A DNA stretch of 5,821 nt, taken from IMG/VR virus record IMGVR_UViG_2660238499_000005; one strand, 5' to 3'. The DNA is from a virus (lineage: Duplodnaviria > Heunggongvirae > Uroviricota > Caudoviricetes). The notes beneath the pieces are model-generated. The model saw only the letters and a program-made list of their open reading frames with translations, was not told the origin of the DNA and searched no databases. The position numbers and the translations under genes are program-made. Below, one piece after another: positions 2,422 to 3,430 of the stretch (positions are counted from its first letter, which is position 1; every line of letters starts with the position of its first letter).

Positions 2422-2644
2422 GACCGCTTAGATCCGCAGCTTGAATTTCAGCAGGCTTCGGGGAGTGCGAGGGATGAAACGGACGCGTGAACGTCGGTGT
2501 GACCAGCTGAAATCAACTCAACATTTCATACCTTAGTCGCTTCAACGAGGCGGCTTAGTTATGACAACCGGCGGCCATCCACCGCCTGAATACGCGCAGA
2601 AGTCTTTATATGTTCAGCAGCCCAGCTTACGGGCAGGAGTTTTT

Positions 2645-2851
2645 ATGGTTCATCAACATTACGGAACGCAGACCGTTAATCGCGGTGCGGTCATGCCAGG
2701 AATGCTGGTCAAACGCAAAGATGGTACCTGGACTGCATCAGCTAATTTACGCGGACGACTTTATCTGCATCGCGGCATTGAGCGCACTTATACCCGTGAC
2801 TTGCTCGTGGAAGTTTTTCTCGACGGACGCGGCAACGGTCTGAATCACTAA
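2645..2851 (+). CDS. Hypothetical small protein (68 aa from ATG 2645; 96 aa if started at 2561)
   Basis: ATG at 2645 is preceded by AGGAG (2635-2639) with a 5-nt spacer; the upstream ATG at 2561 has only a weak GAGG. Product MVHQHYGTQTVNRGAVMPGMLVKRKDGTWTASANLRGRLYLHRGIERTYTRDLLVEVFLDGRGNGLNH; no family recognised. Confidence 0.45.
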   Translation: MVHQHYGTQTVNRGAVMPGMLVKRKDGTWTASANLRGRLYLHRGIERTYTRDLLVEVFLDGRGNGLNH

Positions 2852-2926
2852 TCCCCTTTCCTGTTTTCCGAATCAGCCTGGCATTCCGCGGGCGATTTTT
2901 TCACAGCCATTTTCAGGAGTTCAGCC

Positions 2927-3211
2927 ATGAACGCTTATTACATTCAGGATCGTCTTGAGGCTCAGAGCTGGGCGCGTCACTACCAGCAGATCGCCCGTGA
3001 AGAGAAAGAGGCAGAACTGGCAGACGACATGGAAAAAGGCCTGCCCCAGCACCTGTTTGAATCGCTATGCATCGATCATTTGCAACGCCACGGGGCCAGC
3101 AAAAAAGCCATTAGGCGCGATCACTTTCATCTACTCCGTTACAAAGCGAGGCTGGGTATTTCCCGGCCTTTCTGTTATCAGAAATCCACTGAAAGCACAG
3201 CGGCTGGCTGA
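2927..3211 (+). CDS. Hypothetical prophage protein (94 aa)
   Basis: Strong SD AGGAG (2915-2919) 7 nt before the ATG. Charged, helical-looking N-terminus ([38 protein letters not shown]...). Same strand and direction as the integrase remnant. Confidence 0.5.
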
Positions 3212-3238
3212 GAAGATAAATAATAAACGGGAGGCGGT

Positions 3239-3430
3239 ATGCACAAAGCATCTCCTGTTGAGTTAAGAACGAGTATTGAGATGGCACATAGCCTTGCTCA
3301 AATTGGAGTCAGGTTTGTGCCAATACCAGTAGAAACAGACGAAGAATTTCATACGTTAGCCACATCCCTTTCACAAAAGCTGGAAATGATGGTGGCGAAA
3401 GCAGAAGCAGATGAGAGAGACCAGGTATGA
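3239..3430 (+). CDS. Hypothetical prophage protein (63 aa)
   Basis: SD GGGAGG (3229-3234) 4 nt before the ATG. Product MHKASPVELRTSIEMAHSLAQIGVRFVPIPVETDEEFHTLATSLSQKLEMMVAKAEADERDQV. Lies immediately upstream of the integrase fragment, where xis or early accessory genes sit in lambdoid phages, but has no recognisable excisionase motif. Confidence 0.5.
   Translation: MHKASPVELRTSIEMAHSLAQIGVRFVPIPVETDEEFHTLATSLSQKLEMMVAKAEADERDQV

Follow-up and report, generated by a model that had tools for sequence, protein, structure and literature searches.

The closest described relatives of the locus analyzed here come from the Rac cryptic prophage of E. coli K-12 and from phage lambda. Rac encodes KilR, an inhibitor of Z-ring formation with a toxicity that is suppressed when FtsZ is overproduced. 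Its C-terminal tail is essential for toxicity in a length-dependent manner (PMC12482147). Lambda Kil, a ZipA-dependent FtsZ inhibitor of 47 aa, is reported to be unrelated to KilR and mechanistically distinct from it (PMC12482147). Further counterparts in lambda are GamS (PDB 2UUZ, 5MBV) and Orf63, which is encoded in the exo-xis region and for which E36 and K47 have been reported to be structurally important (PMC10869804).

In this study, we followed up three small open reading frames (ORF1 to ORF3) between positions 2561 and 3430 of a window of 5,821 nucleotides, a complete E. coli draft-genome contig bounded by IS1. We assign a probability of about 0.85 to the reading that these positions are the remains of the early-left (pL) operon of an argU-integrated lambdoid prophage after two simple deletions. 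The three frames are well-known lambdoid early genes, namely an intact kil, a broken gam, and an intact orf63. They survived two deletions in a prophage that is decaying at the argU tRNA gene of E. coli; their identities are already known, and the finding is an ordinary one.

A pL operon remnant at argU

The features of the remnant and its surroundings, with the evidence for each, are as follows.

601..1293, + strand: cI-type repressor, 230 aa, with HTH and S24 LexA-like autocleavage domain (Pfam, PHROG 4)
2324..2373, + strand: OL operators and pL-like promoter (promoter scan, motif count, direct repeat)
2376..2644, + strand: untranslated leader of the pL transcript (conservation across phages of different immunity)
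2645..2851, + strand: kil (ORF1), KilR-family cell-division inhibitor, 68 aa, intact (PHROG 294, KilR alignments)
2927..3113, + strand: gam', first 62 codons of the RecBCD inhibitor GamS (Pfam, PDB alignment, breakpoint relative to prophage L001)
3114..3266, + strand: orf60a' (DUF1317), 3' remnant without its first 9-10 codons and native start (L001 alignment)
3148..3170, + strand: terminator-like stem-loop followed by TCTGTT, between gam' and orf63 (terminator scan)
3239..3430, + strand: orf63 (DUF1382; ORF3), 63 aa, intact (Pfam, PHROG 292, PDB 8DSB)
3427..3486, + strand: start (20 codons) of a small hydrophobic ORF, up to junction J2 (junction sequences, ORF list)
3487..3719, + strand: int', pseudogene, last 77 codons of an IntD-type tyrosine integrase gene (Pfam, L001, RefSeq)
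3735..3811, - strand: tRNA-Arg(TCT), argU, the prophage attachment site (ARAGORN, Rfam tRNA)

We found the remnant to be collinear with the intact argU prophage of E. coli OkiPb01695 in three blocks of 99.9% identity; over 2,667 nt, 3 positions are substituted, and the names given here to the deleted genes come from the annotation of that prophage record. The first deletion (1,604 bp; breakpoint 3112/3113 relative to L001; 2-bp microhomology TA) removed the 3' part of gam, bet, exo, and the 5' part of orf60a. With the second (2,008 bp; 2-bp microhomology TT), orf61, a TraR-like gene, DUF4222, and xis were lost together with 80% of int; its junction J2 at 3486/3487 lies directly 3' of ORF3. It cuts short the small hydrophobic ORF that begins at 3427, which comprises 27 aa in the intact prophage and is unannotated in L001. 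Window positions 3485-5765 correspond to L001 8151-10431, starting within intD (7222-8385). The int' fragment matches profile positions 125-171 of 172 of Pfam Phage_integrase, and RefSeq flags int of strain EC2641 as a pseudogene "missing N-terminus". No small winged-helix excisionase (Xis) gene was found directly upstream of int', an interval that falls inside the 2,008-bp deletion and that in L001 includes a partial HTH pseudogene (6995-7057). We infer that the remnant is unable to excise, recombine, or replicate.

In intact relatives, which were checked for the absence of these genes, gam-bet-exo is present between the junction sequences. Among functional lambdoid phages, six were examined (PhiR68_2, Perceval, IdasGreatGrand, PhiR5_1, PhiR26_1, and PhiR30_1), and each has the order kil-gam-bet-exo-orf60a; orf63 comes next in four of them, with another gene in this slot in PhiR5_1 and PhiR30_1. 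Lambda keeps the order from gam to orf63 and has its own unrelated kil. An identical configuration is annotated by RefSeq in strain EC2641 (kil intact, gam pseudogene, DUF1382 intact, int pseudogene), and further E. coli contigs, some of them from human gut metagenomes, carry these junctions with ~100% identity. An exact search of species-representative genomes for the gam'/orf60a' junction gave 0 matches; via the fusion protein, the junction was located in E. coli drafts, gut metagenomes, and also one complete genome. Decay has progressed further in this lineage, with a 47-bp deletion in an 87-aa gene in some contigs and a third deletion located at 447/448.

These results bear on an earlier note on this DNA. 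The three frames and their Shine-Dalgarno sequences, read directly from the sequence and the ORF list, are located where it had placed them, all on the + strand in the direction of the int remnant (in-frame part 3487-3719), and they do belong to the early-left (pL) region of an argU-integrated lambdoid prophage. Its guess at host-takeover or anti-defense genes was right in kind, as Kil-type proteins block division and Gam inhibits RecBCD. The view that the frames show no recognized motif and have no assigned function gave way in profile searches to matches with KilR, Gam PF06064, and DUF1382/Orf63. The region was also taken as the position of xis, but the 2,008-bp deletion took xis along with most of the exo-xis region. 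Finally, disruption in close relatives had been proposed as a sign of non-coding remnant DNA; for ORF2 a disrupted copy was indeed found, but the situation is inverted, with close relatives intact and the copy in the window being the disrupted one.

Identity of the three reading frames

ORF1 is listed as 2561..2851 on the + strand (96 aa). An AGGAG at 2635-2639, 5 nt before ATG 2645, serves the latter codon, and ORF1 therefore comprises 68 aa (2645-2851), its start having previously been misplaced by 84 nt. The 68-aa protein is identical to RefSeq WP_000233582.1 (annotated in L001 and EC2641) and matches PHROG 294 (E = 1.4e-37, profile positions 4-80 of 83); Pfam PF27398 is precomputed on it and on all but one of 120 listed homologues. 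Alignment with Rac KilR started at residue 1 of the 68-aa form and gave 34% identity over 61 residues (E = 2e-11), and hhalign returned 97.6% (E = 3.6e-12). NCBIfam NF008465 scored 58.9 bits (E = 3.7e-16), below its curated cutoff of 92 bits. By sequence, ORF1 is placed in the KilR family but outside the Rac KilR subfamily. Because of the 34% identity to Rac KilR and the score below the NCBIfam cutoff, FtsZ as the target of this Kil subfamily is an extrapolation. A paper on kilR of O157:H7 deals with the Rac-type gene and not with the subfamily of ORF1 (PMC12711010).

The local Pfam copy, which the KilR family postdates, gave no match for ORF1, and neither did a PDB sequence search. The AF2 model (pLDDT 84.9) shows six strands between residues 8 and 59, a disordered N-terminus with low confidence at residues 1-3, and a tail of lower confidence, in agreement with the AF3 description of KilR as a protein of about 70 aa in which unstructured N- and C-terminal segments flank a beta-sheet core (PMC12482147). 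Its best structural match was a 73-aa phage protein (TM 0.80), and a PDB fold search returned only non-significant SH3-like beta-barrels, e.g. the eIF5A N-domain (best E = 0.27). The tail, DGRGNGLNH, follows the pattern L-D/N-G-x-G-x-G-L among homologues, in which G63 is invariant and G61, G65, and L66 are conserved at at least 90%. In six diverged phage copies, 9 of 10 variable sites in kil were at codon position 3 and no indels occurred. This codon-position pattern demonstrates translation of kil from 2645, and purifying selection on the gene is clear. Homology of ORF1 to lambda Kil was considered and rejected, as BLASTP gave no alignment at E <= 100 and the PHROGs differ (3924, 2461, and 2055 for lambda Kil, 294 for ORF1).

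ORF2, listed as 2927..3211 on the + strand (94 aa), is preceded by AGGAG at 2915-2919, 7 nt before ATG 2927. It matched Pfam Gam PF06064 with E = 1.3e-40 at profile positions 1-73 of 98 only, and was near-identical to PDB 5MBV/2UUZ up to residue 62 (~95% identity to GamS) and unrelated beyond. True Gam homology stops at this residue (nt 3113), the site of the 1,604-bp deletion, beyond which the frame is shifted. The full 98-aa GamS is thus not present: 36 codons at the 3' end are lost and 32 out-of-frame residues stand in their place, which makes gam' a pseudogene, and PGAP flags gam in EC2641 accordingly ("missing C-terminus"). ORF2, formerly taken as a gene, is a truncated and frameshifted deletion chimera of which only 2927-3113 is gam. 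Its reading frame continues into orf60a', from whose own frame it is offset by 157 nt (1 mod 3), and ends with the stop codon 3209-3211. Window positions 3112-3490 correspond to L001 5770-6148, and DUF1317 starts at L001 5742. Since orf60a is decapitated, the native orf60a/orf63 overlap is not translated from its real start here; PGAP predicts a product of 62 aa for the interval equivalent to 3078-3266, with ATT as the codon in the window. Judged by its sequence, Gam' is expected to have no activity, as 36 of the 98 residues of GamS, an obligate dimer, are missing from it.

Downstream, the stem-loop at 3148-3170 is identical to lambda 31287-31265, and a 46-nt comparison that includes it contains 1 mismatch. 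This lambda position is that of tL3, and the identification of the hairpin as tL3 follows from this position together with the identity. A literature search on lambda tL3 returned irrelevant matches only.

ORF3 starts at ATG 3239, 4 nt after GGGAGG (3229-3234). It covers Pfam DUF1382 completely (positions 1-60 of 60, E = 7.7e-31), matches PHROG 292, and corresponds to WP_000548537.1 in L001 and EC2641. Residues 2-63 aligned to residues 16-77 of PDB 8DSB, the solved Orf63 dimer, at about 92% identity (E = 7.4e-33). Only 4 of the 63 residues are substituted relative to lambda Orf63, and E32, E36, and K47 (PMC10869804) are kept. The frame is intact in lambda and in five other copies. ORF1 and ORF3 are more than chance ORFs. 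With no replication, lysis, or structural genes left in the prophage, a pro-lytic effect of Orf63 would be moot in the remnant.

Three other readings of the frames were weighed against this evidence. That ORF1 is a 96-aa protein from ATG 2561, as in several phage annotations and gene callers, agrees with the conservation of this codon, in frame in 7 of 8 copies, and with its being called on many contigs. However, a 1-nt insertion in the functional phage PhiR30_1 puts ATG 2561 out of frame and leaves the 68-aa core intact, and positions 2561-2644 contain 2 variable sites without third-position bias, i.e. no coding-type substitution pattern. Both observations led us to reject the long form. In addition, no Shine-Dalgarno sequence precedes 2561, KilR homology begins at Met29 of the long form, and the 68-aa form is predominant across Enterobacteriaceae, other genera included, so that we regard the long form as very improbable. 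A partly active Gam' fusion (62 Gam and 32 unrelated residues), for instance one binding RecBCD by its N-terminal helix, seems similarly far-fetched. The conserved N-terminal residues, the intact Shine-Dalgarno sequence and start codon, and the many contacts made by the GamS N-terminal helix, which plugs the ssDNA channel of RecB (PMC5218532), would allow for it. Nevertheless, GamS is active as a dimer, the body of which imitates duplex DNA (PMC5218532), 36 of its 98 residues are swapped for out-of-frame sequence in the fusion, PGAP flags the gene as a pseudogene, and the fusion is confined to the lineage with these deletions, where it forms a cluster of 9 sequences. The idea of three novel accessory genes without assigned function, possibly new host-takeover or anti-defense factors, could draw on the missing local Pfam match of ORF1, on Orf63 having no known biochemical partner (PMC10869804), and on PADLOC defense models, which gave no match on the three frames and only weak coiled-coil or HTH matches on neighboring genes. 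It is already refuted by family matches and collinearity with intact phages and retains the least credence of all: each frame matches a named family with E 1e-30 or better, two of these families have solved structures, KilR PF27398 is precomputed on ORF1, ORF2 is a deletion chimera, and RefSeq names all three.

Repressor, promoter, and possible expression of kil

The repressor matches Pfam Peptidase_S24 and HTH_3 as well as PHROG 4, and carries the autocleavage motifs Ala99-Gly100, GDSM at 141, and Lys180. It shows zero mismatches over 601-1293 against L001, and equals RefSeq WP_001295669.1 in L001 and EC2641. We presume that cI regulates the three frames. The pL-like promoter (-35 TTGATA, 2339-2344; -10 TATTAT, 2362-2367) has 10 of 12 matches in the promoter scan. 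The operator motif CAATAGCAATA occurs in the window only at 2324-2334, 2349-2359, 501-511, and 548-558, the last two sites adjoining cI in the cI/cro region; four copies compare with 0.15 expected, and none of 200 shuffles reached this number. In addition, 523-572 and 2324-2373 form a 50-nt direct repeat with 72% identity.

The leader (~270 nt) is nearly invariant, and the operators diverge left of ~2375. Neither an N gene nor a recognized antiterminator was found between pL and kil, the leader showed no similarity to the put RNA region of HK022, and no Rfam family was detected within 2100-3700. Its folding energy is ordinary (z = -0.34).

Given an intact LexA-like cI and matching operators over a pL-like promoter upstream of kil, SOS-inducible expression of Kil from the remnant is plausible. 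In the proposed course of events, cI would hold pL shut until DNA damage leads to RecA-stimulated self-cleavage of the repressor, upon which pL would be derepressed and the 68-aa Kil made. By homology with Rac KilR, Kil might then block Z-ring formation and cause filamentation, acting via its beta-core and conserved C-terminal tail. Production of Orf63, a pro-lytic dimer, would require read-through of the tL3-like hairpin at 3148-3170.

Whether such expression matters to the host separates two further readings. With odds slightly short of even, the three frames are inert debris, silent or irrelevant to the host, with ORF1 and ORF3 intact only through the recency of the deletions and bound to decay as gam and int did. 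The near-identity to the intact prophage, the ~100% identity among all contigs with the deletions, the progressive decay within the lineage, and the IS1 copies on each side of the remnant all favor this. At 99.9% identity recency alone suffices, and the intactness of kil, orf63, and cI is therefore no sign of selective retention. On the other hand, repressor, operators, promoter, Shine-Dalgarno sequence, and kil ORF are all intact, so that nothing visible stops kil expression on derepression, and Rac KilR, a comparable cryptic-prophage division inhibitor, is expressed and matters under stress (PMC12482147, PMC3105296). The debris reading bears on significance rather than identity and is compatible with the pL operon remnant as the best explanation. 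A more speculative proposal, which we consider improbable, is that cI, OL/pL, leader, and KilR-type gene form a domesticated, reversible DNA-damage division checkpoint, by analogy with Rac KilR under oxidative stress, in which the leader would act as a cis-regulatory RNA. The leader, including 2561-2644, could then attenuate transcription in a Rho/NusG-dependent manner, or it could antiterminate independently of any factor and so take the place of the N/nut system, which lambdoid phages of this group lack.

Comparison with lambda, Rac, and other prophages

The value of these results is mainly that of correct annotation, and little beyond: three seemingly unknown ORFs turn into lambda-type early genes and deletion scars once homology and synteny are checked. 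Of minor interest are the wide distribution of the Kil subfamily in prophages of Enterobacteriaceae, including Stx-converting phages, and the conserved leader of these phages, which have no N gene. If cI-pL-kil gave the host a beneficial SOS-inducible division block, it would represent one more stress function of a cryptic prophage.

Compared with lambda, the kil gene described here occupies the same slot directly upstream of gam and is expected to have the same general function as lambda kil, whereas nucleotide homology to lambda starts only at 2845, at the end of kil. Residues 1-62 of gam' are near-identical to lambda Gam, with the same Shine-Dalgarno sequence and the same place after kil. 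ORF3 corresponds to Orf63 over its full length and shares its Shine-Dalgarno sequence and the upstream orf60a sequence (PMC10869804, PMC5575149), but has lost its neighbors to deletion, namely orf61, the TraR-like gene, the ea22-type genes, and also xis.

Rac KilR is alike in size (73 aa versus 68 aa here) and in its predicted beta core, short disordered N-terminus, and C-terminal tail (PMC12482147). Both genes are the first of a repressor-controlled early-left operon in a lambdoid prophage. The tail comprises 12 residues in Rac KilR and 9, with a conserved G-x-G-x-G-L motif of its own, in the protein described here. Whereas Rac kilR precedes racC-recE-recT under RacR, kil here precedes lambda-type gam-bet-exo under an SOS-cleavable cI, and nucleotide comparison of the window with the Rac kilR/KilS sRNA region gave no matches. 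The locus, a lambdoid remnant that is presumably unable to excise and lies at argU beside fimZ/sfm, resembles DLP12 and other decayed argU prophages, from which it differs in retained gene content. There is a further parallel to SOS-inducible prophage division inhibitors such as e14 SfiC/YmfM, in that a repressor has been kept together with a division inhibitor.

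Kil as the first of the three reading frames

The three small reading frames and their Shine-Dalgarno sequences lie where the earlier note had placed them (AGGAG 2635-2639, AGGAG 2915-2919 and GGGAGG 3229-3234), with spacings of 5, 7 and 4 nt to ATG codons at 2645, 2927 and 3239. This observation stands; its interpretation as three genes of unknown function is outdated, as the frames match KilR, Gam and DUF1382, respectively, RefSeq names are present and the middle frame is a pseudogene.

The first frame matched PHROG 294, "Kil protein for bacterial septation inhibition", with E = 1.4e-37, and scored 58.9 bits against the NCBIfam KilR model NF008465, which is under the cutoff of 92 of this narrow model. 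Its product shares 34% identity with Rac KilR across 61 residues, and a profile built from 40 sequences aligned to KilR with 97.6% probability. Precomputed Pfam annotation assigns it to PF27398 (KilR), likewise all but 1 of 120 listed database homologues.

Because the first Shine-Dalgarno sequence is located 5 nt upstream of the ATG at 2645, it serves this codon rather than the ATG at 2561, the first of the longest reading frame. Among six phage copies (92-100% identical), kil (2645-2848) contains 10 variable sites, nine of which fall on third codon positions, and no indels; at the level of sequence, this pattern indicates that kil is translated in the frame of 2645 and is under purifying selection. 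The 84 nt from 2561 to 2644 show two variable sites without third-position bias in the same comparison. In the functional phage PhiR30_1, a 1-nt insertion places the upstream ATG out of frame and leaves the 68-aa core intact. KilR homology starts at Met1 of the 68-aa form, and this length predominates in homologues from Klebsiella, Citrobacter, Enterobacter, Shimwellia and Salmonella. Together, these data define the true gene as 2645-2851. A start at 2561 is made unlikely by Shine-Dalgarno placement, substitution pattern, the PhiR30_1 frame and the KilR alignment. Annotated Kil starts differ among records (68, 96, 125 and 139 aa).

Layout and deletions of the remnant

The 5,821 bp represent the complete contig LLYL01000017.1 of the E. 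coli draft assembly GCA_001484475.1 (locus L009). The features are as follows.

Features of the window
59-157, + strand: DNA-invertase-like helix-turn-helix fragment (weak HTH_7 match), adjoining the tail-fibre-assembly fragment
Beside it and before the cro fragment, + strand: tail-fibre-assembly gene, 3' end
+ strand: cro, first 15 codons only
601-1293, + strand: cI repressor, intact
1376-1639 and 1652-2095, + strand: two small genes (87 aa and 147 aa) 3' of cI
2170-2193, + strand: terminator
Upstream of the three reading frames, + strand: promoter/operator block, then a leader of ~270 nt
+ strand: the three reading frames, then the last 77 codons of the integrase
Minus strand: tRNA-Arg(TCT), argU
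Beyond argU: fimZ, sfmF and part of the sfmH/fimH adhesin gene

Both ends (1-57 and 5766-5821) are IS1 termini and are thus assembly breaks at repeats; in related contigs, an IS1B transposase precedes 1-57 and an InsA gene abuts 5766-5821. In EC2641, a complete E. coli genome with the remnant in the identical configuration, the right-hand IS1 directly follows fimZ and the sfm operon is absent, so IS1 positions vary among strains of the lineage. The fragment at 59-157, in RefSeq a pseudogene ("helix-turn-helix domain-containing, missing N-terminus"), resembles the terminal part of a Pin/Gin-type DNA invertase truncated by IS1. The two genes 3' of cI occupy the position of lambda rexAB and match PHROG 4231 and PHROG 3556, both function-unknown families; in the 147-aa product, a coiled-coil region with weak XhlA/haemolysin-like and PbeC matches is combined with a hydrophobic C-terminus. 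In other phages of the group, the content of this slot is quite different and includes HipA-like proteins and a lipoprotein, and the 87-aa gene has a 47-bp deletion in three sister contigs (L005, L008, L010).

Aligned with an intact argU prophage of E. coli OkiPb01695 (L001), the window shows 99.9% identity and collinearity in three blocks. The first junction (3112/3113, shared TA) marks the loss of 1,604 bp, from the 36 terminal codons of gam through the whole of bet and exo to codon 9 or 10 of orf60a (DUF1317). At the second (3486/3487, shared TT), 2,008 bp are missing; these carried orf61, one TraR/DksA-like and one DUF4222 gene, a partial HTH pseudogene and intD up to codon ~310. Compared with sister contigs L006 and L007, which retain cro, a YdaT-like cII, O and a tail-fibre fragment at this place, the window also has a third deletion (447/448), by which cro is fused after codon 15 with the 3' part of a tail-fibre-assembly gene. 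The Rfam family "IS009" (RF02111) matched with 177.7 bits at 289-489 on the - strand, across the tfa 3' end and this junction. The order kil-gam-bet-exo-orf60a was found in all six functional phages examined, with orf63 next in four of them; lambda keeps the order from gam to orf63 and has its own unrelated kil.

The middle frame gave a Gam match (PF06064, E = 1.3e-40) that stops three quarters into the profile, and is near-identical to GamS (PDB 5MBV) through residue 62 and unrelated beyond. Its 94 aa arise because the gam reading frame enters the orf60a remnant in the wrong frame and meets a stop only at 3209-3211. It is confined to the deletion lineage, in a cluster of nine sequences all named "hypothetical protein". 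Gam is a dimer mimicking duplex DNA, with an N-terminal helix inside the RecB channel (PMC5218532); lacking 36 of 98 residues of this dimeric mimic, the truncated form is expected to be inactive. RefSeq/PGAP annotates the decapitated orf60a at locus L019 (5539-5727; window 3078-3266) as a gene for an intact 62-aa "DUF1317 family protein". This call begins at a position corresponding to an ATT codon within the gam remnant, so it appears homology-driven and the orf60a remnant is probably a pseudogene.

The third frame covers the full DUF1382 profile and differs from lambda Orf63 at 4 of 63 residues. It is intact in all copies, and the four replacements are all conservative. Orf63 is an experimentally folded protein that promotes lytic development (PMC5575149, PMC10869804), with a dimeric NMR structure (PDB 8DSB; PMC10869804). 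In a remnant without replication, lysis and structural genes, there is nothing obvious to promote. Within this group of phages, orf63 is an exchangeable cassette: in its place behind orf60a, PhiR30_1 has a gene for a DNA N6-adenine methyltransferase and PhiR5_1 one for a 250-aa hypothetical protein. A hydrophobic small ORF (3427-3528; 6085-6167 in the intact prophage) overlaps the orf63 stop codon by ATGA; it encodes 27 aa in the intact prophage, where it is unannotated, and its window copy is cut by the second junction.

Repressor control and the pL leader

cI is the same as in the intact prophage, with HTH and S24 autocleavage domains and the Ala-Gly, GDSM and Lys motifs. A sigma-70-like promoter (TTGATA-17-TATTAT, 2339-2367) is directed toward kil. 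The window contains four copies of the 11-nt motif CAATAGCAATA, of which two overlie this promoter and two lie between cI and cro (chance expectation 0.15; none of 200 shuffles reached four). The two sites also share a repeat of 50 nt. This layout of predicted operators is the classical OL/OR arrangement, and control of kil transcription by cI is therefore a well-supported prediction.

Downstream, the ~270-nt leader (2376-2644) is nearly invariant across phages with differing operators and immunity regions, and divergence among them ends sharply at ~2375. Neither an N gene or known antiterminator nor an Rfam match or similarity to HK022 was found in the leader region, and its folding energy is not unusual. 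Within it lie a boxA-like CGCTTAGA with a hairpin after it (~2437-2456), and a 31-codon ORF (2441-2536) with an arginine-rich KRTRERR, the internal ATG of which (2474) is GTG in most relatives. Within the orf60a remnant, a terminator-like stem-loop (3148-3170) has the same sequence as lambda 31287-31265, which we take to be the tL3 position. Since it sits between the gam remnant and orf63 and no antiterminator was found, pL may drive orf63 only poorly.

The identical configuration is already annotated by RefSeq in EC2641, with a "phage encoded cell division inhibitor protein" (WP_000233582.1), a DUF1382 family protein (WP_000548537.1), a Gam pseudogene "missing C-terminus" and an integrase pseudogene; the elements of the finding are thus already known. 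The same junctions recur at ~100% identity in several human gut metagenome contigs, and the remnant is therefore a fixed scar of one commensal E. coli lineage. That cI, pL and kil were domesticated as a reversible division block upon DNA damage is possible and unsupported; as the remnant is near-identical to a live prophage, intact kil, orf63 and cI are uninformative on selection. The remaining curiosities are this Kil subfamily and the conserved N-less leader.

Expected action of Kil compared with lambda Kil and KilR

From its homology to KilR, the Kil protein is predicted to block assembly of the FtsZ ring. It shares with lambda Kil the slot upstream of gam, but the sequences are unrelated: sequence comparison and PHROG membership revealed no similarity, and nucleotide homology of the window to lambda begins only at 2845. 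Rac KilR causes filamentation at low and rounding of cells at high expression, is rescued by FtsZ overproduction and needs an unstructured C-terminal tail in a length-dependent manner (PMC12482147). The AF2 model of the protein studied here (pLDDT 85), with a disordered N-terminus, six beta strands and a lower-confidence tail, matches the layout described for KilR (PMC12482147). Its tail comprises 9 residues and a conserved G-x-G-x-G-L motif. KilR lacking three residues, with a 9-residue tail left, filaments cells and loses rounding (PMC12482147); by analogy, we speculate that this Kil might behave like truncated KilR and cause filamentation without rounding.
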